This document shows positions 7,609 to 38,691 of a DNA stretch of 64,000 nt, piece by piece (positions within the stretch are counted from its first letter, which is position 1; each line of letters opens with the position of its first letter). The DNA is taken from positions 19,643 to 83,642 of the forward strand of contig SVJE01000006.1 in the NCBI GenBank assembly GCA_015069135.1, given 5' to 3'. Both the position numbers and the translations under genes were made by a program. Under the pieces are notes generated by a model. The model did not search any database, was not told where the DNA came from, and worked only from the letters and a program-made list of their open reading frames with translations. This DNA is from Oscillospiraceae bacterium (GTDB lineage: Bacteria; Bacillota; Clostridia; UBA1212; SIG427).

Positions 7609-7612
7609 TAAA

Positions 7613-8527
7613 ATGATGTATGATATTTTAATTGTTGGTGGAGGCTGTGCAGGATTGACAGCCTCCATATACGGTGCGAGAGCCGGTATGAAAGTTTTGG
7701 TTATAGAGGGAAGCTCCATAGGTGGACAGATCAGTTCATCACCAAAGGTGGAAAATTATCCGGGCTTTATGGAAATAAGCGGTATGGAATTTTCAGACCG
7801 CTTGTATGAGCAGGCTATGAACTTAGGTGTAACTCTTGAATTTGACACGATACAGAAAGCTGAAAAACTTAATGAAGGTTTTAAGCTTACCGGTGAGTAT
7901 GGCGAATATGAAGGTAAGAGTCTTATAATTGCTACAGGGGCCAAACACAGACATTTGGGAGTCCCCGGGGAAGAAGAGCTTTCCGGCAAAGGCGTTTCCT
8001 ATTGTGCTGTGTGCGACGGTGCATTTTATCGGGGGAAAATTGTAGCTGTTATAGGTGGTGGCAGCAGTGCTTTACAAAGTGCTGAGCTTATGGCAGGCTA
8101 CTGTGAAAAGGTTTACCTTATTCATCGGCGTGACGAATTTCGAGGTGAAACTGCTTTGGCAGAGCGCCTTAAAACGAAAGAAAATGTGGAGTTTTTACTT
8201 TCTTCTGTCGTTGAAGAATTTGTAGCAGGGGAAGACGGAAAGTTGGATACGTTAAAGGTAAAATGTCTGATTTCCGGTAGTGTTTCTGACGTGGTTGTAA
8301 ACGGTGCCTTTATTTCCGTTGGTCAGCAGCCTGATAACGAAGTTTTTAAAGATCTTGTATCTTTGGACAGCACAGGTTTTGTAGTGGCAGGAGAGGACTG
8401 TAAGACTACCTGTGAAGGTGTGTGGTGTGCAGGAGACTGCAGAACCAAGGCCATAAGGCAACTTTCCACAGCGGCGGCTGATGGTACTGTGGCAGCATTA
8501 AGTGCAGCCGAGTATTTAAGAGGATAA
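7613..8527 (+). CDS. trxB: Thioredoxin-disulfide reductase
   Basis: FAD motif IVGGGCAG, redox-active CAVC, NADPH motif GGGSSA. Start chosen at ATG 7613 (MMYDIL) rather than the upstream in-frame TTG that would overlap nrdD. Confidence 0.85.
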   Translation: MMYDILIVGGGCAGLTASIYGARAGMKVLVIEGSSIGGQISSSPKVENYPGFMEISGMEFSDRLYEQAMNLGVTLEFDTIQKAEKLNEGFKLTGEYGEYEGKSLIIATGAKHRHLGVPGEEELSGKGVSYCAVCDGAFYRGKIVAVIGGGSSALQSAELMAGYCEKVYLIHRRDEFRGETALAERLKTKENVEFLLSSVVEEFVAGEDGKLDTLKVKCLISGSVSDVVVNGAFISVGQQPDNEVFKDLVSLDSTGFVVAGEDCKTTCEGVWCAGDCRTKAIRQLSTAAADGTVAALSAAEYLRG

Positions 8528-20043: not shown

Positions 20044-21231
20044 ATGCAGGAAATTAAATGTCCTAAATGCGGAGAAGTGTTTCAGGTAGACCAGGCTGGC
20101 TATGCAGCTATTGTAAAGCAAGTAAGGGATACTGAATTTAATAAAGAGCTTTCAGAAAGAGAAGGCTTACTTAAAGAGCGTCAGCAGACTGCGGTTAAAC
20201 TTGCCCAGGCAGAAACTGCAGAAAAACTTAATGAGAAATTAAGTGAAAAAGAAAAGGAAATTGCTGAGCTTAAGGCTAAGCTTCTGGCCAGTGAAACTGA
20301 AAAGAAACTGGCAGTTACTGAAGCTGTAGCTTATAAAGATCAGGAGATTATAACCCTTAACAGTAAGATTCATACCAGTGAACAAGAAGCAAAACTTAAA
20401 GAACAGAATCTTAAAGAAAGTTATGAGCTTAAGCTTAAGAGTAAAGACGAGGAAGTGGCATTTTACAAAGATCTTAAAGCAAAGCAATCCACTAAGATGG
20501 TGGGGGAAACTCTTGAACAACATTGTGAAATTGAATTTAACAGGTTAAGAGCTACCGGCTTTAAGAATGCCTATTTTGAAAAAGATAACGATGCCAGAAG
20601 TGGTAGTAAAGGTGACTACATTTTCAGGGATTTTGATGATAACAGAATGGAGTTTATCTCAATTATGTTTGAAATGAAAAATGAAATGGATGAAACTGCC
20701 ACAAAACATAAAAACGAAGATTTTCTTAAAGAGCTTGATAAGGACCGTAGAGAGAAAAACTGTGAATATGCTGTTTTGGTTTCCTTACTGGAAGCAGACA
20801 GTGAGCTGTACAATTCCGGTATTGTTGATATGTCTCATCGCTATGAAAAAATGTATGTTATCCGTCCCCAGTTCTTTATTCCTATGATTACACTGCTTCG
20901 TAATGCGGCACTTAATTCTTTGGAATACAAACAGGAATTGGTAACAGTGCAGAATCAGAATATAGACATATCTAATTTTGAAAATGAAATAAATGATTTC
21001 AAAACAAAATTTGCATACAACTACAGACTTGCCAGTGATAAGTTTAAAAAGGCTATAGACGAGATTGATAAGACTATTGACCATTTACAGAAAACAAAAG
21101 AGGCTTTATTGTCATCAGAAAATAATTTAAGATTAGCTAACAACAAAGCTGAGGATTTGACTATTAAAAAGCTTACAAGAAATAATCCTACAATGGCTGC
21201 TAAGTTTGCTGAATTAAAAGAGGAAGAATAA
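20044..21231 (+). CDS. DUF2130-family protein (N-terminal zinc ribbon + long coiled coil)
   Basis: [28 protein letters not shown] followed by a Glu/Lys-rich heptad region. First gene of a five-gene operon. Confidence 0.55.
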
Positions 21232-22227
21232 ATGCCATTAAAAATAATCAGACAGGATATAACTAAAATAAAGGCAGATGCCATAGTAAACCCCACCAAC
21301 AAGTATATGAGGCCCGGTGGGGGAACTGATGCTGCCATTCATAAAGCTGCCGGCAAGAAACTTATGATGGAATGTATTTCTTTAGGCGAATGTCCTGAAG
21401 GAGAGGCTCGAATAACAAAAGGCTATAATCTCCCAAGTAAATACGTTATACATACTGCAGGTCCGGTGTGGAGAGACGGGCAGTGTGGTGAAAAGGAAAT
21501 TTTGGAATCTTGCTATAGAGAATGTCTTAATTTAGCTGCTGAATATAAATTAGAAAGCATTGCTTTTCCATTAATATCTTCGGGGTTGTATGGTTTTCCT
21601 AAAGACAGTGTGCTTAAAATAGCTATACAAGTTATAGGTCAGTTTTTGTTTGAAAATGAGATTGATGTATATATAGTTGTGTTTGATAAAACTGCTTATC
21701 AGCTTAGTGAGAAACTTTTTAAGGATGTTACTTCATACATTGATGATAACTATGTGGATGAACATTCGGATTGTTTTGCAAGAACTTATAGTATGCCTTC
21801 AGTTGGAATGGCTTATAGTTGTCCTTCTCCGGTTGACTGTTGCAGCGTAGAAAAAAAGGCAGATTTAGATTCCATGCTTGACAACTTAGATGAAAGTTTT
21901 TCTCAGATGTTGCTTCGCAAAATAGATGAAAAGGGCATGACGGATGTACAGTGCTATAAAAAAGCAAATATCAACAGAAAACTTTTTTCGAAAATCAGAA
22001 GCGATGTAAACTATAAGCCCAGCAAACCTACCGTAATTGCTTTTGCTGTTTCTCTGGAGTTAACACTTGAGGAAACAGAAGAAATGCTTAAAAAGGCTGG
22101 TTTTGCCCTTTCTCACAGCAATAAGTTTGATATTATAATTGAATTCTTTATAACTAACGGCAAATATGATATTTTTGAAATAAACGAGACTTTATTTGCC
22201 TTTGACCAAAGTTTGTTAGGAGCGTGA
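21232..22227 (+). CDS. Macro-domain protein (ADP-ribose binding / O-acetyl-ADP-ribose deacetylase-like) fused to C-terminal XRE-type HTH
   Basis: Macro motifs NPTN...GGGTDAAIHKAAG, KYVIHTAGPVW and IAFPLISSGLYGFP. The C-terminal ~90 aa (LLRKIDEKGMTDVQCYKKANINRKLFSKIRSD) resembles a Cro/C1 HTH. The start codon abuts the previous stop. Confidence 0.7.
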   Translation: MPLKIIRQDITKIKADAIVNPTNKYMRPGGGTDAAIHKAAGKKLMMECISLGECPEGEARITKGYNLPSKYVIHTAGPVWRDGQCGEKEILESCYRECLNLAAEYKLESIAFPLISSGLYGFPKDSVLKIAIQVIGQFLFENEIDVYIVVFDKTAYQLSEKLFKDVTSYIDDNYVDEHSDCFARTYSMPSVGMAYSCPSPVDCCSVEKKADLDSMLDNLDESFSQMLLRKIDEKGMTDVQCYKKANINRKLFSKIRSDVNYKPSKPTVIAFAVSLELTLEETEEMLKKAGFALSHSNKFDIIIEFFITNGKYDIFEINETLFAFDQSLLGA

Positions 22228-22231
22228 AAAT

Positions 22232-22582
22232 ATGGTTAAATTTATTTGTTATCCCAAATGTACTACTTGTCAGAAAGCTAAAAAATGGCTGGATGATAAT
22301 AGTGTTGAATATGAATTAAGAGATATAAAGCTTGATAATCCTTCTCTTAAAGAATTGGAGCATTGGTATAAATTAAGCGGACAACCATTAAAGAAGTTTT
22401 ATAATACCAGCGGTCTTTTATACAAGTCCATGGCCATTAAAGATAAACTTCCTTCTATGAGTGATGAGGAAATGCTTAAACTTCTGGCTTCAGACGGAAT
22501 GTTGGTTAAAAGGCCTTTGGTCATAGGAGATGATTTTGTTCTTATAGGCTTTAAGGAAGCAGAGTGGAAATGTCTCCTGTGA
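22232..22582 (+). CDS. ArsC/Spx-family thioredoxin-fold protein
   Basis: MVKFICYPKCTTCQKAKKWL has an N-terminal CxxC like Spx, YffB or ArsC. 116 aa. Confidence 0.6.
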   Translation: MVKFICYPKCTTCQKAKKWLDDNSVEYELRDIKLDNPSLKELEHWYKLSGQPLKKFYNTSGLLYKSMAIKDKLPSMSDEEMLKLLASDGMLVKRPLVIGDDFVLIGFKEAEWKCLL

Positions 22583-22672
22583 AGCGACCTTTTGTATTAA
22601 TATAACCTGTAAAATGTGATTGTAAGGTTATTAAACCTGCAATCACATTTTTATTTTATCGGAGGTTATATT

Positions 22673-23323
22673 ATGAAAAACAACATTACTGAATTAGTAT
22701 TTATTTTGGACAGAAGCGGTTCTATGGCAGGATTGGAAGCTGACACTATCGGTGGATTTAACTCAATGATTGAAAAGCAGAAGAAACTTGATGATAAGTG
22801 TTATGTATCAACGGTGCTTTTTGACAGTGTTAGTGAAGTGCTTCACGACAGAGTGGAACTTAGGGATATTAAGCCTATGACGGAAGACGAATATTTTACC
22901 AGAGGATGTACCGCACTTCTTGATGCCATTGGCGGTGCCATTCACCATATAGGAAATATTCACAAATATGCCCGCCCTGAAGATGTGCCTGAGCACACAA
23001 TGTTTGTAATCACCACAGACGGAATGGAGAATGCCAGTCACAAATATTCTTCAAGAAAAGTTAAGGCAATGATAGAAAGACAGAAAGAAAAGTATGGCTG
23101 GGAGTTTATATTCATAGGTGCAAACATTGACGCTGTGGAAACAGCAGCCAGGTATGGAATAGCACCTGAACGAGCTGTTAATTACAACGCAGATAAAGAA
23201 GGCACCAAGGTTTTGTATCAGACTGTTTCTAAGGCAGTGGGCCAGGTAAGATGTTCTGCACCGTTAGATGACAGCTGGAGTATGGACATTGATAATGATT
23301 ACAAAAAGAGAGGGAAGAAATAA
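22673..23323 (+). CDS. von Willebrand factor type A domain protein
   Basis: MIDAS motif DRSGSM plus downstream T and D positions. GGAGG RBS in front of ATG 22673. Confidence 0.6.
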   Translation: MKNNITELVFILDRSGSMAGLEADTIGGFNSMIEKQKKLDDKCYVSTVLFDSVSEVLHDRVELRDIKPMTEDEYFTRGCTALLDAIGGAIHHIGNIHKYARPEDVPEHTMFVITTDGMENASHKYSSRKVKAMIERQKEKYGWEFIFIGANIDAVETAARYGIAPERAVNYNADKEGTKVLYQTVSKAVGQVRCSAPLDDSWSMDIDNDYKKRGKK

Positions 23324-24141
23324 TGAAGAAAACAAAATTAGCAGGTGAAATTTTAGGAGATGTTGTAGGATCTGTGTATGAATTTGATAACATTAAAACA
23401 AAAGAGTTTCCTTTGTTTGGCAAGTATTGTATGTTCACTGATGATACAGTTCTTACATTGGCAGTAGCCAAGTCTTTGTGTGAGACTGATGCTCATAAGG
23501 ATATTGAAGATTTTAAGAAGAGGTTGGTTTATAATATGCATCTTTTAGGACATGAATATCCTGATGCAGGTTTTGGGGGAAGATTTATGAATTGGCTGGA
23601 AACAGGAAACAAGGAACCGTATAACAGCTGTGGTAACGGCTCTGCTATGAGAGTTTCTCCTGTTGGCTGGTATGCTGAAAGTTTAGAAGAGGCAGAAGCC
23701 CTTGCTACAGCCTCTGCAGAAGTTACTCATAATCATCCTGAAGGAATTAAGGGTGCCGTTTCAGTGGCAGGAGCTATTTATCTTGCAAGAACAGGGGTCG
23801 GTAAAAAGGAAATCTATGAATATTGTAAAAAGTTCTATAATCTTGATTTTACTTTAGATGAAATCAGACCCACATATTATTTTGTGGAAACTTGTCAGGA
23901 AAGTGTACCTCAGGCATTAGTAGCTTTTTTTGAAAGTGAATCATTTGAGGATGCCATAAGAAATGCAATTTCTATAGGTGGTGACAGTGACACTATAGCT
24001 GCTATTACAGGATCTATAGCAGAGGCATTTTACGGCATTGACGAAGATCTTGAAGAAGCAGCCCTTTCATATCTGGATGAGAGATTGCTTAATATTGTGG
24101 ATTTGTTTGCAGATAAAATAAGGGACACCCAAAACCGATAA
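23323..24141 (+). CDS. ADP-ribosylglycohydrolase (DraG/ARH family)
   Basis: GDVVGSVYEF, CGNGSAMRVSPVG and GGDSDTIAAITG blocks are typical of the ARH fold. Start overlaps the vWA stop (TAATG). Confidence 0.75.
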   Translation: MKKTKLAGEILGDVVGSVYEFDNIKTKEFPLFGKYCMFTDDTVLTLAVAKSLCETDAHKDIEDFKKRLVYNMHLLGHEYPDAGFGGRFMNWLETGNKEPYNSCGNGSAMRVSPVGWYAESLEEAEALATASAEVTHNHPEGIKGAVSVAGAIYLARTGVGKKEIYEYCKKFYNLDFTLDEIRPTYYFVETCQESVPQALVAFFESESFEDAIRNAISIGGDSDTIAAITGSIAEAFYGIDEDLEEAALSYLDERLLNIVDLFADKIRDTQNR

Positions 24142-31483: not shown

Positions 31484-31507
31484 AGTGATATAATAGCTTT
31501 GAGTAAA

Positions 31508-31537
31508 AAAGGGTGCTGTGAGGCATCCTTTTTTTGA
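31508..31537 (+). terminator. Rho-independent terminator
   Basis: AGGGTGC-tgtgag-GCATCCT followed by TTTTTTT. Confidence 0.6.
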
Positions 31538-31644
31538 ATAAAATTGCCGTTATCGGCAAAAATAGAAATAATGTATGCCCTTGCAATATTGAAATCTTGC
31601 CGATGGTATGATATACTGATAACAATGATTATGGAGGTTGGCTT

Positions 31645-32553
31645 ATGAAGTTTTTATCCGTTAAAGAGGTGGCGAAAATATGGAACACATCTGAGCGAAG
31701 TGTTCGGAATTATTGTTCTACAGGCCGTGTTCCCGGTGCTTTCCTAACAGGTAAGACCTGGAGTATTCCGGGAAATGCCGAGAAACCTGAAAGAAGTAAT
31801 AAAAGTAAACCTGCACCGCAAACCTTACTTGATATATTAAGAGAGGAAAAGCGTAGCCAAGTTCACGGCGGTATTTATCATAAAATACAGATTGAGCTTA
31901 CCTACAACTCCAATCATATTGAAGGAAGCCGACTTACCCACGATCAGACACGGTATATCTTTGAAACCAATACTATTGGTATTACTGATGAAGGTATTCG
32001 TGTGGATGATATTATAGAAACATCTACTCATTTCCGCTGTATAGATGAAATTATTGAAAATGCAAAAGTACCACTTTCCGAAAAGTTGATAAAACACTTG
32101 CATTTTATATTAAAGACCGGCACAAGTGATGCAAAAAAAGAGTGGTTTGTGGTTGGCGATTACAAAAAACTGCCTAACGAGGTAGGGGGCAAGGAAACTA
32201 CACTTCCTGAAAATGTGTCGAAGGAAATGAGAAAACTTCTTGACGAGTATAACAGTAAGGAAAACAAAACTCTTGAGGATATCATAGACTTCCACGTACG
32301 GTTTGAGAATATCCACCCATTCCAAGATGGTAATGGTCGTGTTGGCAGGTTGATAATGTTTAAGGAATGTCTTAAATATGGTATTGTTCCGTTTATTATT
32401 GAAGATAAAATAAAAATGTTCTATTACAGGGGCCTTAAAGAGTGGGAGCAGGAAAAAGGATATCTTATGGATACATGTCTTACGGCTCAGGATACATTTA
32501 AAAAGTATTTAGATTATTTTAGGATAACATATAACAACGAAACTGAAGTGTGA
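31645..32553 (+). CDS. Fic family protein (AMPylator fold) with N-terminal excisionase-type HTH
   Basis: Fic motif HPFQDGNGRVGR. Candidate auto-inhibitory motif SNHIEG (S/TxxxEG/N, class II). N-terminal HTH_17-like MKFLSVKEVAKIWNTSERSVRNY. Confidence 0.8.
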   Translation: MKFLSVKEVAKIWNTSERSVRNYCSTGRVPGAFLTGKTWSIPGNAEKPERSNKSKPAPQTLLDILREEKRSQVHGGIYHKIQIELTYNSNHIEGSRLTHDQTRYIFETNTIGITDEGIRVDDIIETSTHFRCIDEIIENAKVPLSEKLIKHLHFILKTGTSDAKKEWFVVGDYKKLPNEVGGKETTLPENVSKEMRKLLDEYNSKENKTLEDIIDFHVRFENIHPFQDGNGRVGRLIMFKECLKYGIVPFIIEDKIKMFYYRGLKEWEQEKGYLMDTCLTAQDTFKKYLDYFRITYNNETEV

Positions 32554-32562
32554 GGAATGAAT

Positions 32563-35334
32563 ATGAAAGATACAGAACAACGTATAGCCGCAAAGGCATT
32601 TTCTGAATATTGGCAAGGTAAGGGATATGAAAAAGGTGAAAGTCAATCCTTTTGGTTGTCTCTTCTTCGTGATGTCTTAGGCGTTTCACAACCTGAAAAG
32701 TTTATTACTTTTGAGGAGCAGGTTCGTCTTGACCATACAAGCTTCATAGATGGTGTTATTCCTTCTACTCATGTACTTATAGAGCAGAAAGGACGAGGCA
32801 AGGATCTCAGAAAGCCTATTAAACAGTCTGATGGTACTCCTCTTACTCCTTTTCAGCAAGCCCAGCGTTATTCTGCTGTTTTGCCTTATTCTCAGCGCCC
32901 CCGTTGGATTGTGACCTGTAACTTTGAAGAGTTCCTTATATATGACATGGAAAAGCCTAATGGTGAGCCTGAACAGATATTCTTAAAAGACTTGGAAAAA
33001 GAATATTATCGCCTTGGATTTTTAGTGGATACAGGTAACGAAAATATCCGCCGTGAAATGGAAGTTTCTATTCAGGCAGGTAATCTTGTAGGTGTTCTTT
33101 ATGATGCTATTCTTAAACAATATAAAGACCCTGAAAATGAGGAAACTCTTAAGAGTCTTAATAAGCTTATAGTTCGTCTTGTTTTCTGTTTATATGCAGA
33201 AGATGCGGGCATTTTTGGCAGTCATACAAAGTTCCACGACTACATAAATTCTTTCCCTGCAAGTGGCATGAGAAAGGCTTTGATAGAGCTTTTTAAGATT
33301 CTTGATACTAAAACTGAAGATAGGGACCCTTATGAAGAAGAAATGTTGTTGGCTTTCCCTTATGTAAATGGTGGTCTTTTTGCTGATGAAAATATTGAAA
33401 TTCCTCAGATGAGTGATGAAATCCGTGATTTGCTTTTAAGAAAGGCCAGCGAAGATTTCGACTGGAGTGCTATCAGTCCTACTATCTTTGGTGCTGTTTT
33501 TGAAAGCACATTGAACCCTGAAACCCGTCGTAGTGGTGGTATGCACTATACATCCATAGAGAACATACATAAGGTTATTGATCCTTTGTTCCTGGATGAG
33601 CTTCGTGAAGAATTAGAGGAGATCAAAGATATTAAAGTTACTAAAACAAGAGACGGTAAAATACATCAATTCCGTGAAAAGTTAGGTAGCCTTACATTCT
33701 TAGACCCTGCTTGTGGTTCCGGTAACTTCTTAACTGAAACATATATTTCTTTACGTCGTCTGGAAAATGAAGCTATAGCTATTATGACTGATGGTCAGAT
33801 GCTTATAGATGTAAGTGATATTATTAAAGTTTCTATAGGGCAGTTCTATGGTATTGAAATAAATGACTTTGCTGTTACTGTTGCAAAGACTGCTCTCTGG
33901 ATAGCTGAAAGCCAGATGATGAAAGAAACGGAAGATATTGCAAGGGTGAACCTTGATTTCTTACCGTTAAAATCTTATGCCAATATTGTGGAGGGTAATG
34001 CTCTTAGAATTGATTGGGAGAGTGTAGTGCCGAAGGAGAAGCTTAATTATATAATGGGTAATCCGCCGTTTGTGGGACAGGCGATGCGTACGAAGGAACA
34101 AGCAAATGATATTCAAGATGTCTTTGCACCATCGCCAGCAGGTGGTAAGTTAGATTATGTTGCAGGCTGGTTCAAGAAATCGGCTGACATTATGAAAAAT
34201 ACAAAGATTCAGGCATCATTTGTATCGTCAAATTCGATATGCCAAGGTGAGTCTGTCCAATTGTTATGGGAAATGCTTTTAGGGGATGGTATTTTTATCA
34301 ACTTTGCTCATTCTACATTTTTGTGGACGAGCGAAGCAAAGGATAAAGCGGCGGTTATGTGTGTAATAGTTGGATTTTCTTATATTGAACGAAAACACAA
34401 ATTACTTTTTGTAGGAGAGCAATACAAGGTAGTAAACCATATAAATGGTTACTTGAAAGATGCACCCGATGTATTTATTAAAAATCGTAGCAAAAGTATT
34501 AATGCCGGTGGGGCAAAAGTTGTGCAAGGCAGTCCTCCAGCGGATGACGGAAGACTTCTTTTATCGGCAGAAGAACGTAGAATTTTGCTTGAAAAATATC
34601 CGGAATTAGAACCTGTTATTAAACCTTTTATAGGTAGTAGGGAATTCATAAATGATACATCATATAAACGATATTGTTTTTGGTTTGTAGATGAATCTCC
34701 CCATAAATATCAACATATTCCTGAGTTGATTGAACGATTCAATTATATTCGTGAGTATAGACTAAAAAGTCCAGTTGATAGAATACAAAAAACAGCAAAT
34801 AAGCCATATTTGTTTACCCAAAATAGACAACCAAAAACAGAGTATTTGATTATACCTCGTGTGTCATCTTCGAACAGAAAATACATTCCGATAGGATTCC
34901 TGCCAGCAAATGTTATCGCAAGTGATTCGGCTGTATTAGTTTACAATGCTACACTATATGATTTTGGTATTATTTGTTCGAATGTTCATAATGCTTGGAT
35001 GAGAACGATTGCTGGTAGATTAAAAAATGACTATCGTTATGCTCCGTCAGTGTACTATAATTTCCCATTTCCAATTGTTGAAGAAAATGACAAGGTGAAA
35101 ATATGTAAAACTGCACAAGCAATTTTGAATGCAAGAAAATTATATAAGGATAAAAGCTTGGCGGATATGTATGGCGATGCTATGTATTTATATCCTGAAT
35201 TATTGCAGGCTCATCAAGAAAATGACAGGGCTGTAATGAAATTGTATGGTTTTGATATTAAAACAACAACGGAATCTACCTGCGTAGCAGAGTTGATGAA
35301 GATGTATCAAGAATTGGTGAAAGAGAAAGGTTGA
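32563..35334 (+). CDS. MmeI-family type IIL restriction-modification enzyme (endonuclease + N6-adenine MTase + TRD in one chain)
   Basis: Blocks match MmeI: PD-ExK-like D...EQKGRGKDL, AFPYVNGGLF, HYTSIENIHKVIDPLFLDEL, SAM site LDPACGSGNF, catalytic NPPF. About 923 aa. A 4-nt gap separates it from the Fic stop. Confidence 0.85.
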   Translation: MKDTEQRIAAKAFSEYWQGKGYEKGESQSFWLSLLRDVLGVSQPEKFITFEEQVRLDHTSFIDGVIPSTHVLIEQKGRGKDLRKPIKQSDGTPLTPFQQAQRYSAVLPYSQRPRWIVTCNFEEFLIYDMEKPNGEPEQIFLKDLEKEYYRLGFLVDTGNENIRREMEVSIQAGNLVGVLYDAILKQYKDPENEETLKSLNKLIVRLVFCLYAEDAGIFGSHTKFHDYINSFPASGMRKALIELFKILDTKTEDRDPYEEEMLLAFPYVNGGLFADENIEIPQMSDEIRDLLLRKASEDFDWSAISPTIFGAVFESTLNPETRRSGGMHYTSIENIHKVIDPLFLDELREELEEIKDIKVTKTRDGKIHQFREKLGSLTFLDPACGSGNFLTETYISLRRLENEAIAIMTDGQMLIDVSDIIKVSIGQFYGIEINDFAVTVAKTALWIAESQMMKETEDIARVNLDFLPLKSYANIVEGNALRIDWESVVPKEKLNYIMGNPPFVGQAMRTKEQANDIQDVFAPSPAGGKLDYVAGWFKKSADIMKNTKIQASFVSSNSICQGESVQLLWEMLLGDGIFINFAHSTFLWTSEAKDKAAVMCVIVGFSYIERKHKLLFVGEQYKVVNHINGYLKDAPDVFIKNRSKSINAGGAKVVQGSPPADDGRLLLSAEERRILLEKYPELEPVIKPFIGSREFINDTSYKRYCFWFVDESPHKYQHIPELIERFNYIREYRLKSPVDRIQKTANKPYLFTQNRQPKTEYLIIPRVSSSNRKYIPIGFLPANVIASDSAVLVYNATLYDFGIICSNVHNAWMRTIAGRLKNDYRYAPSVYYNFPFPIVEENDKVKICKTAQAILNARKLYKDKSLADMYGDAMYLYPELLQAHQENDRAVMKLYGFDIKTTTESTCVAELMKMYQELVKEKG

Positions 35335-35645
35335 TTAGATAAGAGCAAAAAAAGTGTAATATATTAAGCGAGAAAGAAATTTTTTTAGTTAAAAGTTAAG
35401 CAGTTAAGCTTTATTTATTACTTTTGAATGTAGTCCTATATTTATAGATACATAGGTTGTGCTCTTTTGGATTTTTCGTACATTCAAATTCAATTGGACT
35501 AGAAGAGTTTCATAGCCGTAGACACAACACAAGCAAATGTCAAATGATATGTATGCATGAGTAAGAAATATTATGTTGAATTTAAAAGTATAATTTCTTC
35601 ATTTCTGTGGTTTAAATTTATACGCTTGAATCCAGTAGAAAAAAT

Positions 35646-35682
35646 GTTGAGACAAAAGATTGTCTCAACATTTTTTGCTTTT
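35646..35682. terminator. Bidirectional terminator
   Basis: GTTGAGACAA-aagat-TGTCTCAAC with an A6 run on one side and a T6 run on the other. Confidence 0.65.
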
Positions 35683-35691
35683 AGACCAATA

Positions 35692-36618
35692 TTAAGTATC
35701 AAGTTTGCTTCCGTACACTGTAACATCTAACTCATTGTCGCTCAATTGCAATGCTGAATATTTATTAGTTACTATAGTTTGATACTGTTTGAGAAGATTT
35801 TCATTCTTTTCTGAAAAATCTTTAATAATTTCTAATGCACTGCCGTATTTCTGAATTAATTGTTCCCTGACCTTTTCTTTTGCTAAAGGCCTTATTTCTT
35901 TTTTTGTTGTATTATCATAATAAGCCGCATCATCACAAATGTTTTGAACTATTACGCTTCGCAGATAATTATCCACTGTAAATTTAAAGTTTTTTTGCAC
36001 TATTTCTTTTGGGATTAGTAAGTGACTTTTCCCTTCCACGACTAATGAATGTCCTGTGTATTTTTCCCAATTATGTGTTTGATAGCTCCAATAATATCTT
36101 TCGTCTGGGCACATAGATGTTTTTATTTTGTACTTTTGACATATTTTAAGTGTGAAGTCAGAAAGTTCTTTATATAACACGTTTGTTATTAAATCCGACA
36201 TACCGTCTTCGGCAAAGTTGGGGACAAATAGTACAAGTTCAAAAATTCTCGATATTTTGATTCTTTTTATATAATCCTCAACTCCACTAAAAATTTTCAT
36301 TAGCCCATCATCGGTGTTTCCGTGCCCGTATTTATTTGCATAGCCCATGTGTGAATCATTGATTTCCTTTGCGTGAGATAATAAGTCTTTTTTTCTTGTA
36401 TTATCATTATCTATAAAGTAAGCCTTATAAAATTCCTTGAAAAAATCATCCAATACGAGCTTAGCCTTTGTGCAAAAATCTGTTTTTCCGACTTCGATTA
36501 ATACTGGGTCGATAAATAATCTGATGTCTCCGGAAATATTTGAGTTTACAAATTCGATATCCTGATGGGAAGGTGAATTTTCTTTGATTAAAATAGAACT
36601 TATTTTTTTGTTAAACAT
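35692..36618 (-). CDS. Hypothetical protein (orphan, in AT-rich island)
   Basis: 308-aa ORF in the most AT-rich part of the window. No recognisable motif. Flanked by a terminator and island genes. Confidence 0.4.
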   Translation of the reverse strand: MFNKKISSILIKENSPSHQDIEFVNSNISGDIRLFIDPVLIEVGKTDFCTKAKLVLDDFFKEFYKAYFIDNDNTRKKDLLSHAKEINDSHMGYANKYGHGNTDDGLMKIFSGVEDYIKRIKISRIFELVLFVPNFAEDGMSDLITNVLYKELSDFTLKICQKYKIKTSMCPDERYYWSYQTHNWEKYTGHSLVVEGKSHLLIPKEIVQKNFKFTVDNYLRSVIVQNICDDAAYYDNTTKKEIRPLAKEKVREQLIQKYGSALEIIKDFSEKNENLLKQYQTIVTNKYSALQLSDNELDVTVYGSKLDT

Positions 36619-36675
36619 TGAATTTCTCCTTTAATAAAATTCCGCTCCCTGCTTTTTACAGAGAGCGGTGTGGTT

Positions 36676-36885
36676 TTAACCAAGATTGTTTTTTGCTTTG
36701 TTATCGGGTTTACTACACGGAGTTGGAATACCGTTTATATTACGTACATAGTAATCGTTATAGCCCCCAGCTTTTATCTTGCGAACAAATTGCTGCCTGG
36801 TCATATCATTTCCGGTTACATTGTCGTGAAAATGTGTATTTCTTCCGGTGTCAGATTCCCGAGTAACAGTGACTCTTTTAATCAT
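36676..36885 (-). CDS. Small conserved protein, DUF3892-like
   Basis: 69 aa, AAAGGAG RBS. THFHD...YNDYYVR...DNKAKNNLG resembles the DUF3892 family. The overlapping plus-strand 82-aa ORF lacks an RBS and looks non-coding. Confidence 0.4.
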   Translation of the reverse strand: MIKRVTVTRESDTGRNTHFHDNVTGNDMTRQQFVRKIKAGGYNDYYVRNINGIPTPCSKPDNKAKNNLG

Positions 36886-37217
36886 TACACTGCGCTCCTT
36901 TTCTCGCCGGTAGCATAAAAATAGGCATTGAAATTCAATGTGTTTTATGGTAACATATCTCTTGTCACGGGGATATGCGTTGGCTCAGCCGGCGTATTCC
37001 TATTATGAGTGAGCTTACGCTCGCTCTTTTTTTATTGAAAGAAGTAGTCCTTCAATTTCTTAATTATTATATAACTGATACGTATATCCTGTCAAGTGGA
37101 TTTTACGATTTTTTCGTAAAATGAACGACCGAAAGCGGGAACGTTAAATATTATTTGATTTCCTATTGCATTTTTTTCGTGAATGGGCTATAATTTATTT
37201 CGTTAGGAGTGACGAAT

Positions 37218-38555
37218 ATGCTAATCAAATTTAAGGTTTCAAACTTTTTGTCTTTTGAGAAAGAAGAAATATTTGATTTATCTGCCGGGAAAGGCCGAAG
37301 TTTTAATGAGCGTGTTTTACAAGATAGTAGATCAAAAATATTAAAGTTTTCTGCACTGTTTGGGGCAAATGGGTCTGGTAAATCGAATTTTGTAAAAGCA
37401 ATTCAATTTTCTAGAAGTTATATTACAAGAGGGAATAATAGAGCTACAATACAAAAATATTATAAATTAAAACACGAATATAAAGAAATGCCGTCGTTGT
37501 TTGAGTATAAAATAAAATTAAACAATTTAACCTACACATACGGTTTTAAAATTATTTTATCCAAAAATGAAATTGTAAACGAATGGTTATTTTTAAATAA
37601 TAAAAATAATGAATTGATATTTGAGCATGATAGAGCTAACAACGTTTTTAATTTGGGTAAATATTTTAAAAGCGGTAGTTTACAAGAAAAACTTAGATTA
37701 TACGCTGAGAGTTTGGACTCTGGAAATAACTCTTTATTTTTAAGTTCCATAAGCAGATATAATAATTTGTTTGCAGAATATGAAGAAGCAGTTATTCTAA
37801 GAAATGTGTATAATTGGTTTTTGAACAAATTAAAAATAAAATTTCCAGATAGATTTATTACAAATTATGCTTATTTCATGTCAGAAAAGAATCTGGATAA
37901 AGTTTTGACATTTTTTAAGGATTTTGATATTTCTATTTCTTCATATAAATTTATACAGTGTCCAAAAGAACATATTGCTATGAAATTATCAAAGGAGATT
38001 TTTGATGATTTTATTTCTACTCTCGAAAAAGACTTGTTATCTAGTGAAGATAATGAAGGTAATACGGCGATGTTTGGATTAGAAGATGATTTTTATATCG
38101 CTAAAGTTTTAAACGAACAAATTGTTTTTGAAACCATTCAGTTTTATCATGAAGAAACGGATGTTCCTTTTTCGATATCTGAAGAATCTGACGGAACAAA
38201 AAAAATACTTAAACTTTTGGAGATACTTTTTCAAGATGAGGAGGATATCGTATATATTGTAGATGAGATTGATAGATGCTTGCACCCATTATTGACTTAC
38301 AACTTTGTTAATGCATATTTAGATAAAGCAAAACAAAACAATTGTCAGTTGGTTGTTACTACTCACGAATCATTGTTATTGGATTTCAATCTTTTAAGAA
38401 AAGATGAGGTTCGAGTAGTTTCTAAAATGAATGGCAGTTCTAGAATTGAATCTATTGGAGATACCCAAATTCGTTCCGATAAAAAATTGGTAAAGGAATA
38501 TTTGCTAGGTAGTAAAGGCGTTCCTAATATAAAAGATAATGCTTTTTCAAATTAA
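37218..38555 (+). CDS. AAA_15/AAA_21 (ABC-like) family ATPase, abortive-infection type, stand-alone
   Basis: Walker A FGANGSGKSN, Walker B IVYIVDEIDRCLHP, TTHES. N-terminus KFKVSNFLSFEKEE is typical of AAA_15. TATAAT -10 and GGAG RBS upstream. No nuclease domain. Confidence 0.7.
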   Translation: MLIKFKVSNFLSFEKEEIFDLSAGKGRSFNERVLQDSRSKILKFSALFGANGSGKSNFVKAIQFSRSYITRGNNRATIQKYYKLKHEYKEMPSLFEYKIKLNNLTYTYGFKIILSKNEIVNEWLFLNNKNNELIFEHDRANNVFNLGKYFKSGSLQEKLRLYAESLDSGNNSLFLSSISRYNNLFAEYEEAVILRNVYNWFLNKLKIKFPDRFITNYAYFMSEKNLDKVLTFFKDFDISISSYKFIQCPKEHIAMKLSKEIFDDFISTLEKDLLSSEDNEGNTAMFGLEDDFYIAKVLNEQIVFETIQFYHEETDVPFSISEESDGTKKILKLLEILFQDEEDIVYIVDEIDRCLHPLLTYNFVNAYLDKAKQNNCQLVVTTHESLLLDFNLLRKDEVRVVSKMNGSSRIESIGDTQIRSDKKLVKEYLLGSKGVPNIKDNAFSN

Positions 38556-38602
38556 CACAATGGGGCTGGCTCATATAAAAATTGAGTCAGCCCTATCTTT
38601 TT

Positions 38603-38691
38603 TGGCGGAGACGGCGAGATTCGAACTCGCGTGCGATTGCTCGCAAACTGATTTCGAGTCAGCCTCGTTATGACCACTTCGATACGTCTCC
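38603..38691 (-). tRNA. tRNA-Ser (anticodon CGA)
   Basis: 89 nt with a long variable arm, anticodon loop CUCGAAA, discriminator G, encoded CCA. Confidence 0.85.

Follow-up and report, generated by a model that had tools for sequence, protein, structure and literature searches.

A probable mosaic of three mobile immunity-type modules beside a tRNA-Ser gene in a rumen Oscillospiraceae genome

In the AbiL and PARIS systems, an ATPase of the ATP-binding cassette (ABC) type is paired with a TOPRIM/OLD nuclease (PMC13064643), and in the MmeI family of restriction-modification (RM) enzymes, for which a specificity code has been published, the characterized members act alone (PMC2731914). DUF3892 proteins have also been tied to defence in the literature, with a predicted fold like that of a double-stranded RNA-binding domain or a hibernation factor and a possible role as sensors of viral RNA or of the ribosome. 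Genes that resemble members of these groups lie close together in the genome of a rumen Oscillospiraceae bacterium, in a 7-kb stretch with immunity-type genes that extends from a terminator at 31.5 kb to a gene for tRNA-Ser; all positions are those of the window, that is, the whole stretch of 64,000 nucleotides (nt) that was analysed. The 7 kb as a whole are best explained as a mosaic of three immunity-type modules that are mobile independently of one another, namely a Fic gene, an MmeI-type gene and a cassette of ATPase, DUF3892 and DUF8370 genes, and the probability of this reading is put at roughly 60%.

Module boundaries, composition and acquisition of the island

The left edge of the island is the intrinsic terminator of the PNPOx-like gene upstream (31505-31541, plus strand), a 13-bp hairpin (-15.7 kcal/mol) followed by a U-run. 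It is followed by five open reading frames (ORFs), which encode a Fic protein (31645-32553, plus strand, 302 amino acids), an MmeI-family RM enzyme (32557/32563-35334, plus strand, 925/923 amino acids), a DUF8370 protein (35692-36618, minus strand, 308 amino acids), a DUF3892-like protein (36676-36885, minus strand, 69 amino acids) and an ATPase (37209/37218-38555, plus strand, 448/445 amino acids, with a GTG alternative at 37209 and an ATG at 37218). The island ends at 38563, adjoining the 3′ end of the gene for tRNA-Ser(CGA), which points toward the island (38603-38691, minus strand; ARAGORN, and Rfam tRNA at 56 bits), and a terminator hairpin 3′ of the ATPase gene (38560-38596, plus strand, -24 kcal/mol) is followed by UCUUUUU. 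The ORF list, the tRNA scan and the family searches thus bear out the preliminary description of this DNA with respect to the strong upstream terminator, the five genes, their motifs, the tRNA-Ser and the label of a defence-type island.

The limits of nucleotide homology with other genomes divide the island into blocks. In the six loci closest to the Fic gene, homology starts at 31529-31537, and in five of them it stops at 32527-32541, just short of the Fic stop codon; in the sixth (L016) it continues into the MmeI gene. The cassette of ATPase, small RNA (sRNA), DUF3892 and DUF8370 is delimited in the same manner at 35582-38563, because locus L096 is 87.7% identical over exactly this segment, and six other loci match at 65-68%. 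An AT-rich spacer of 247 nt between them (35335-35581, GC content 0.27) belongs neither to the MmeI block nor to the cassette, and lies outside the homology both with L016, which effectively stops inside the MmeI gene at 34076, and with L096, which begins at 35582.

The blocks also occur apart from one another. A survey for the Fic gene with one genome per species yielded 587 relatives, and among the best 80 loci (67-89% identity, from many Firmicute families), tblastn with the window proteins found none of the DUF8370 protein, the 69-residue protein and the ATPase. A metagenome scan for DUF8370 gave 80 loci, many of them near-duplicates, with four architectures; the Fic gene, the MmeI gene and the genes that flank the island in the window are absent from all 14 of the loci that share the window's cassette architecture (class A). 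Because each module occurs elsewhere in unrelated contexts, all of them can be regarded, as far as sequence comparison goes, as horizontally mobile.

The hypothesis that the block is instead ordinary vertically inherited housekeeping DNA is very improbable. It would agree with the base composition of the Fic and MmeI genes (GC 0.373 and 0.370), which is host-like, about 1 standard deviation (SD) under the value of 0.387 +/- 0.016 for the window's 15 other long ORFs, and with the distribution of the island within the species. Exact-protein look-ups with the left flank, with Fic and with the right flank each gave about 22 contigs from several metagenomes. All of these conspecific contigs have the same gene order, and of those that were compared, none is less than 99.97% identical to the window. 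The comparison of strains that had been suggested earlier therefore reveals no presence/absence polymorphism, and because all conspecific contigs share the gene order, the island is fixed within the species. It is the composition of the remainder that vertical inheritance does not explain: the spacer (0.27), the DUF8370 gene (0.313) and the ATPase gene (0.275) are 4-7 SD under the same 15 host ORFs, so that the low GC content once ascribed to the whole block is confined to 35.3-38.6 kb. Furthermore, the five proteins have no matches among housekeeping families, the modules recur individually in unrelated genomes and in varied surroundings, and in sister lineages the corresponding slot is filled by other defence candidates.

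Horizontal acquisition had been proposed on the basis of the adjacent tRNA gene and the low GC content; the mobility of the modules agrees with this proposal. Classical integration targeted to the tRNA is not supported, because no recombinase or integrase domain is found in the island by Pfam and no tRNA-derived direct repeat or att-like repeat is found at its far edge, findings that vertical inheritance would also accommodate. Neither an empty site nor a syntenic relative that lacks the block was recovered, as all conspecific contigs carry the island and the scans of sequence collections were aimed at the contexts of Fic and DUF8370.

The Fic and MmeI modules

By its motifs, the Fic protein is predicted to belong to class II (auto-inhibited) and to carry a helix-turn-helix (HTH) domain, in agreement with the preliminary description. 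It matches Pfam Fic (4.6e-18; 66 bits against a cutoff of 24) and, at its N-terminus, HTH_17 (8e-6). The active-site motif HxFx(D/E)GNGRxxR is present as H224-P-F-Q-D-G-N-G-R-V-G-R235, and HPFQDGNGRVGR of the active site is invariant across 24 Fic homologues. The inhibitory motif S89-N-H-I-E93-G94 is situated in the same chain, 130 residues ahead of the active site, and S89, N90, H91, E93 and G94 are invariant in the 24 homologues, with only I92 variable. The protein is a predicted AMP-transferase, and it matches the single-gene candidate PDC-S04 (2e-115) and SoFic (1e-20) in PADLOC; it is not a SoFic equivalog (NCBIfam NF046030, 27.7 bits against a cutoff of 550). The nearest solved structure is that of the Fic protein 4X2E (3e-24). 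Homologues number more than 8000, and the top 120 are 78-100% identical.

The Fic gene appears to constitute an autonomous module of about 1 kb (about 31536-32541) with its own promoter and putative operator, because it is found in unrelated contexts, its homology has sharp limits, and its promoter is conserved in spite of differing upstream DNA. The 146 genes that immediately flank Fic in the 80 best loci fall into 164 Pfam families without a recurrent partner, and include the housekeeping genes YchF, AspRS and PEPCK. The 110 nt upstream of Fic are common to the loci, and the DNA beyond differs in every one of them. Within this segment, the promoter scan detects a promoter region (31544-31617, plus strand) that is conserved in nine Fic loci of different species, comprising the palindrome TTGCCG-TTAT-CGGCAA (31544-31559), the -35 element TTGAAA (31589) and the extended -10 element TATACT (31612-31617), and a second half-site, TTGCCGAT, is located within the spacer between -35 and -10. 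The HTH domain of Fic may bind the TGCCG..CGGCA sites, which would form a putative operator, and would then autoregulate its own promoter.

As a side observation, the Fic module lies 0.3-1.9 kb from a tRNA-Ser-like sequence in two other loci, L017 (about 8034-8145) and L019 (about 7612-7675), on the opposite side of the tRNA, and L019 also has the thioredoxin and Crp genes of the window; this placement hints at a tRNA-Ser-proximal hotspot.

The RM enzyme is, judged from its sequence, an intact single-chain MmeI-family type IIL/IIG enzyme, and the earlier identification of a full-length member of this family is upheld. The five domains PF20464, PF20465, PF20473, PF20466 and PF20467 are all present in this order and over cutoff, as would be expected of the family's single chain of N-terminal nuclease, helicase-like spacer, gamma-class N6-adenine methyltransferase, target recognition domain and C-terminal domain, the match to the MmeI structure 5HR4 extends end to end (E = 1e-172, residues 7-920 / 7-902 aligned), and PADLOC assigns it to REase_MTase_IIG with E = 0. 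Read from the sequence, the nuclease motif FID65...IEQK (D...ExK), the S-adenosylmethionine motif I FLDPACGSGNFL and the methylase motif GNPPFVG (NPPF) are intact. Pfam and PADLOC reveal no other methyltransferase, HsdS or HsdM domain among the island ORFs. MmeI-family enzymes of type IIL cleave about 20/18 nt from their site and methylate one strand. Alignment with MmeI and the published code predict the site positions 3, 4 and 6: R768/D790 correspond to MmeI E751/N773 and specify G at position 3, S791/R827 correspond to A774/R810 and specify R at position 4, and K823/D825 correspond to E806/R808 and specify G at position 6. The predicted recognition site is therefore NNGRAG, in which the A would be the methylated base. 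It is in this part of the gene that contig ends from at least seven metagenome samples cluster, within 110 nt (34784-34895) and approached from both sides, corresponding to residues 741-778 or thereabouts of the target recognition domain, which include the specificity residue R768; strain-level polymorphism of the domain or an assembly problem may be the cause.

The Fic and MmeI genes had been described as separated by 4 nt and probably co-translated. The adjacency is real, and the distance requires correction: 3 nt separate the Fic stop codon from the first ATG of MmeI (32557), which is not conserved, and 9 nt separate it from the start at 32563 that is conserved in the junction alignment. 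The Shine-Dalgarno sequence of MmeI, GAGGA, overlaps the Fic stop codon. Because the gap contains neither a promoter nor a terminator, the two genes are probably co-transcribed from the Fic promoter, and the HTH domain of Fic would then autoregulate a promoter that also feeds MmeI.

It had further been suggested that this arrangement represents an unusual coupling of a toxin with an RM enzyme. The Fic-MmeI pair is found, with a conserved junction, in four related lineages, among which the flanking genes are of three different sets. The lineages are the window, L189 (Fic 90%, MmeI 88%), L192/L193 (Fic 89%, MmeI 70%) and L016 (Fic 89%, MmeI 66%), and the nucleotide identity of 78% between the window and L016 continues unbroken straight across the junction. 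Such features, together with the overlap of the Shine-Dalgarno sequence and the Fic stop codon, would be expected of a toxin/RM system dedicated to these two genes, with Fic as a co-effector or a C-protein-like controller of the restriction enzyme. Ten further Fic orthologues are closely followed by a gene in the same orientation, and these genes encode an Mrr-like nuclease, GmrSD, an AbiJ-like protein, another Fic, a metallophosphatase, a phosphotyrosine phosphatase, YchF, a protein with a weak match to PdaC and two unknowns; the nucleases and the AbiJ-like protein among them may be counted on the same side.

The wider survey nevertheless makes a dedicated system unlikely. An MmeI gene is found by tblastn within 10 kb of only one (L016) of the 78 other species-level Fic orthologues, and it is absent from the other five closest ones (L017-L021, 85-89% identity). 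Conversely, genes other than Fic lie upstream of the MmeI homologues of 81% and 79% identity. In addition, Fic has its own promoter, its neighbours elsewhere are also housekeeping genes, characterized MmeI-family enzymes act alone, and the four Fic-MmeI pairs may all go back to one ancestral event that brought the genes together. An obligate Fic-MmeI system is thus rejected on the basis of the survey of 80 Fic loci and the contexts of the MmeI homologues, and the adjacency is best described as real and recurrent in one clade and facultative on both sides. A more general role can be imagined, in which the HTH-Fic gene is a portable autoregulated leader gene that would drive whichever nuclease sits downstream (MmeI here; Mrr-like, GmrSD and AbiJ-like proteins elsewhere), and this idea is weaker than the RNA-gated mode of action considered below for the cassette.

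The slot after MmeI is occupied differently in the sister lineages, by the candidates PDC-S31 and PDC-S15 in L189 and by a 332-residue protein and a DUF4238 protein in L192, and a variable slot of this kind after Fic-MmeI is a hallmark of a defence-island hotspot. Another cluster of the window (20044-24141) encodes DUF2130, a Macro-domain protein (331 amino acids), an ArsC/glutaredoxin-like protein, a 235-residue protein and an ADP-ribosylglycohydrolase; in L189 and L192, the segment just downstream of Fic-MmeI contains homologues of two of these, the Macro protein (66%) and the 235-residue protein (85%). The Macro/ADP-ribosylglycohydrolase cluster (20-24 kb) has no PADLOC match and was not accepted as a known defence system.

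The ATPase, DUF3892 and DUF8370 cassette and its regulatory spacer

The three remaining genes had been regarded as an unassignable orphan, a DUF3892 micro-protein and a stand-alone ATPase. Because they keep their layout in 11 loci without Fic or MmeI, they appear to form one mobile cassette of 3 kb, and neither the orphan nor the solitary ATPase survives the comparison. In class A, the architecture of the window, a divergent ATPase gene and a spacer of about 300 nt precede the gene for the 69-residue protein and the DUF8370 gene (DUF8370 identity 49-84%); of the 14 loci, all 11 that have enough upstream sequence keep the order ATPase(-)/spacer/DUF3892/DUF8370, and four further loci are truncated or without the ATPase. 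The identities to the window are 60-94% for the ATPase and 67-88% for the 69-residue protein, and those of the ATPase and DUF8370 covary from locus to locus. Distant DUF8370 genes (31-36% identity) adjoin AbiLi-like ATPases in two other arrangements: in class B (DUF8370 about 35%), a 464-residue ATPase is followed by a 208-residue protein, a 71-residue protein and DUF8370, and in class C (31-35%), an ATPase of 428-446 residues is encoded directly upstream of DUF8370. Class D comprises DUF8370 genes of various identities with no ATPase nearby. In total, an AbiLi-like ATPase is present in 33 of the 43 DUF8370 loci whose upstream sequence extends for 3 kb or more, and the pairing of DUF3892 with DUF8370 is kept down to about 35% identity. 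In other genomes, WYL regulators, serine recombinases and RHS toxins are encoded beside the cassette, and DUF8370 is found on 87 plasmid records (PLSDB).

The 308-residue protein is assigned to DUF8370 by a precomputed match to PF28123, by the PADLOC model PDC-M36A (7.7e-12) and by phrog_27295 (8.7e-24). It has 40 close homologues, and 1653 clusters at 50% identity are recovered (E <= 1e-3) from 1.8 billion representatives; tblastn yields no match in phage genomes, although PHROG profiles exist. A longer form of about 470 residues also exists, and its C-terminal extension has no Pfam domain; the window protein is of the form with about 300 residues. The AlphaFold2 model (pLDDT 85.5, pTM 0.83) has no Foldseek match in PDB or BFVD, and the profile of the alignment (A3) matches no PDB sequence. 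Residues D31, D37, E85, N87, D138, D142 and K204 are invariant, and because several of them are acidic, they suggest a putative effector that acts as a metal-dependent hydrolase. The DUF4435/TOPRIM fold that had been raised as a possibility does not materialize: as a TOPRIM, RloB or DUF4435 nuclease, DUF8370 has no Pfam or PADLOC match, a probability of 0.1% in hhalign against an RloB protein, and no Foldseek match.

The assignment of the 69-residue protein to DUF3892 stands in part. Its match to Pfam DUF3892 (PF13031) is 19.2 bits, under the cutoff of 22.3, and it matches phrog_11939 at 4e-30. The 71-residue protein of class B (L142) matches DUF3892 with 43.1 bits (5.8e-11), and the two proteins share 35% identity, 15 invariant columns and the same PHROG 11939, so that the 69-residue protein can be considered homologous to one that passes as DUF3892. 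The ATPase matches AAA_21 (2.9e-25), and in PADLOC the best of its 55 matches is AbiLi (3.8e-66), with AriA at 8.7e-27 and PtuA at about 1e-7. AbiLi is also the top PADLOC match of the class B and C ATPases. Together with the motifs read from the sequence (Walker A GANGSGKS, Walker B IVYIVDEID, H-loop TTHES), these matches predict an AbiLi-like ABC-type ATPase.

The spacer between the ATPase and DUF3892 genes, aligned from nine loci whose proteins are 50-94% identical (alignment A4), is better conserved than the genes of the cassette. A conserved leader block, TGCTACCGGCGAGAAAAGGAG, which holds the Shine-Dalgarno sequence of DUF3892, is near-invariant in the nine loci (36898-36919, minus strand). 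The promoter of the DUF3892-DUF8370 operon, TTGACA-18-TATAAT (37066-37095, minus strand), agrees with the consensus in 12/12 positions, and its -35 element is invariant, with a -10 element that differs in three of the nine loci. The ATPase promoter, TTGCAT-17-TATAAT (37166-37194, plus strand), was read from the sequence, and its hexamers are conserved in the alignment. Between these divergent promoters, the palindrome ATTTTACG-N7-CGTAAAAT (37100-37122) is conserved in the aligned loci and may serve as a putative operator. The intergenic region of DUF3892 and DUF8370 contains a hairpin with 11 pairs followed by a U-run (36642-36668, minus strand; terminator scan), which is present in all eight aligned loci with compensatory changes in six of nine pairs and is probably an internal attenuator that would lower DUF8370 relative to DUF3892. 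Downstream of DUF8370, a perfect 17-bp inverted repeat (35639-35676; 100% complementary, -20.8 kcal/mol) has an A-run upstream and a T-run downstream on the plus strand, and its position and symmetry suggest a bidirectional terminator.

The spacer also appears to encode a cis-antisense sRNA on the plus strand. The candidate sRNA of about 75 nt (36960-37035, with an inferred start coordinate) is antisense to the 5′ untranslated region (UTR) of DUF3892-DUF8370 and is preceded by a candidate promoter, TTGAAA-17-TAACAT with an upstream TG (36928-36956, plus strand), which was found by the promoter scan and has a conserved -35 and extended -10; this promoter and that of the operon are convergent, about 110 nt apart. 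The element consists of a near-invariant 12-bp hairpin (core 36974-37000) and an intrinsic terminator (37007-37026) with a T-run. Its 27-nt core, GGAATACGCCGGCTGAGCCAACGCATA, has at most two mismatches in all class-A loci, and the covariance model R1 finds the element in all 15 of them (the window and 14 others, including L110, which lacks the ATPase) and nowhere else, the distant DUF8370 loci included. The spacer has no Rfam match at E <= 1, and the core has 0 matches in viral contigs. The conserved core was rejected as a peptide, since L104 and L107 show non-synonymous changes in an otherwise invariant nucleotide sequence.

The same element might instead act in cis, either as a structured 5′ leader on the mRNA of DUF3892-DUF8370 or by attenuating transcription ahead of the ATPase gene. 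It lies within the 5′ UTR set by the conserved operon promoter, a conserved CGCCGG / CCGGCG complementarity joins its core to the block near the Shine-Dalgarno sequence, and it is also upstream of the ATPase gene on the same strand. The fold on the minus strand is much weaker, however, with a consensus of -8.4 kcal/mol against -20.7 on the plus strand (minimum free energies of the single sequence -17.7 and -31.5), and substitutions disrupt its pairs: all but one of those in hairpin 1 keep the pairing of the plus strand, several of them as G-U, which are mismatches on the minus strand. The terminator hairpin shows compensatory changes, and the A-run that precedes it on the operon strand is invariant, which is explicable only as the T-run of a plus-strand terminator. 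A conserved -35 and extended -10 are found on the plus strand at the right distance, the element is kept in L110 in the absence of the ATPase, and beyond the sRNA terminator the ATPase gene is served by a separate conserved promoter. A leader or attenuator is accordingly improbable, and the candidate antisense sRNA is preferred.

With this sRNA, a mode of action can be outlined for the cassette, in which gene content, linkage, module limits and the conservation of promoters and hairpins are observed and the roles of the parts are proposed. By analogy with AbiL and PARIS, the ATPase would be the sensor or scaffold for infection and DUF8370 the effector; DUF3892 would be an RNA-binding adaptor or neutralizer that is made in excess, because the conserved attenuator hairpin separates it from DUF8370. 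The sRNA, transcribed convergently inside the 5′ UTR of the operon, would repress the operon by antisense pairing and promoter interference, and sRNA, attenuator and operator together would hold the effector low until infection. The cassette would then be an RNA-gated abortive-infection system, in which sRNA and attenuator restrain the novel-fold DUF8370, DUF3892 binds the sRNA:leader duplex or phage or ribosomal RNA, and the ATPase senses infection and frees the effector. This scheme is possible and is put forward tentatively.

Several points weigh against the mosaic of immunity modules, and in particular against the unity of the cassette. The defence function of the components is a prediction from sequence, PDC-S04 and PDC-M36 are candidates, and one PDC-S04 gene that was assayed in E. 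coli was not protective (10.1101/2024.12.20.629700). Near-duplicates are numerous among the metagenome loci, and the independent lineages are therefore fewer than the counts of loci suggest. The covariation of the sRNA is weak: the loci provide eight distinct sequences, hairpin 1 is nearly constant, and the observed score is attained in 32 of 500 shuffles. The class B ATPase has its own small downstream partner (208 amino acids), L110 has no ATPase but retains the sRNA, DUF3892 and DUF8370, and DUF8370 is solitary in 10 of the 43 loci and in many plasmid copies, often beside resolvases. The link of the ATPase to DUF8370 could thus reflect a defence-island neighbourhood, not a common mechanism.

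The gene content of L110 and of the plasmids is also what would be expected if the ATPase were a decayed AbiL-type remnant without its TOPRIM partner and DUF3892-DUF8370 an unrelated toxin-antitoxin (TA) or addiction module with its own RNA regulator. In the same direction, the genes of related ATPases on plasmids overlap with that of a small partner downstream, in one instance annotated as RloB, and in class B the ATPase and a 208-residue protein with an E...DxD motif precede DUF3892-DUF8370. This alternative is rather doubtful: the class-A ATPase is of full length, shows no signs of decay and is 60-94% conserved beside DUF8370 in 11 loci, a single conserved spacer with its palindrome is common to both divergent promoters, and AbiLi-like ATPases adjoin DUF8370 in three different gene orders. 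The single cassette therefore remains the preferred reading. The 208-residue protein itself, encoded after the 464-residue ATPase in L126 (6876-7502) and its class B equivalents, contains the motifs VIVHGKSE and IIMDTDD, an E...DxD pattern that is TOPRIM-like by eye; it has no Pfam, PADLOC or BLAST support, and its identification as RloB was rejected, as BLASTP is not significant.

Beyond the tRNA, on the right flank of the island (about 42.8-51 kb; L176-L178), several neighbouring genes carry dockerin domains, among them those for a GH2-adjacent protein with a metallo-beta-lactamase fold and for purple acid phosphatase-like proteins, which suggests a cellulosome-bearing rumen bacterium. The names given to proteins identical to those of the window point to an uncultured Ruminococcaceae/Oscillospiraceae bacterium of the rumen or gut.

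Comparison with known systems

The window Fic shares with SoFic, PDC-S04 and 4X2E the Fic core and the N-terminal inhibitory helix of class II, (S/T)xxxE(G/N), and differs from them in its N-terminal HTH_17 and its conserved palindromic promoter region. Its eye-catching adjacency to an RM gene proved facultative. The RM enzyme has the same five domains as MmeI, the D...ExK and NPPF motifs and a full-length alignment, whereas the spacing of the nuclease motif is D-X10-E instead of D-X9-E and the gene, unlike that of MmeI, is situated 9 nt behind a Fic gene. Its specificity residues are the same as those of the engineered MmeI(3G6G) (E751R/N773D/E806K/R808D), the site of which is TCGRAG; the site of the window enzyme is predicted at positions 3-6 only, bases 1-2 being beyond the code. 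A specificity of NNGRAG can be checked in the methylomes of rumen isolates.

For the regulation of the cassette, the closest parallels are the type I TA systems hok/sok and Fst par, which likewise have convergent promoters and a short structured RNA with an intrinsic terminator that overlaps the 5′ UTR of the effector, the RNA of the cassette being a predicted one. The genes regulated in the cassette encode a polar 69-residue DUF3892 protein and a soluble 308-residue DUF8370 protein, not a small hydrophobic toxin peptide as in hok/sok and Fst. Among defence candidates, PDC-M36 is matched in component A by DUF8370 proteins from the window and from distant loci (7.7e-12, 3e-15 and 2e-8), which match no other model; the PDC-M36A model has 457 positions, of which the window protein covers 18-279. 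PDC-M36B is not among the listed hits of the island proteins (for the ATPase, the best 25 of 55), and a full-text literature search found no paper that mentions PDC-M36.

The pairing of an ABC ATPase with an effector is a major theme of immunity, represented by AbiL, PARIS, Gabija and Septu. Like AbiL and PARIS, the cassette has an ATPase of the AbiLi/AriA type, with ABC/Rad50-like motifs and a size of about 445 residues, which is linked to a putative effector of about 300 residues, and it is mobile and occurs in defence islands. The TOPRIM, RloB or DUF4435 partner of those systems is lacking, as no island protein matches the AbiLii or AriB models. Pfam and PADLOC detect no AbiLii/RloB partner beside the ATPase gene, which is directly followed by the terminator and the tRNA, and in 31.6-38.6 kb no protein matches a model of the PARIS, Gabija or Septu partners (AriB DUF4435 TOPRIM, GajA-fused TOPRIM and GajB, PtuB HNH). 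The partner genes are divergent from the ATPase gene instead of downstream of it as in AbiL and PARIS, and a small DUF3892 protein, a candidate antisense sRNA and an internal attenuator are added.

Comparison of gene neighbourhoods alone was sufficient to merge an "orphan" and a "stand-alone ATPase" into one system. DUF8370, which comprises more than 1600 clusters with no matched fold or activity, can be approached through this cassette, because it is compact (3 kb), has native promoters and is directly clonable, so that two DUF families become testable together. In its composition, the cassette exchanges the TOPRIM or HNH nuclease for DUF8370 and is an uncharacterized variant of the theme of an ABC ATPase plus an effector.

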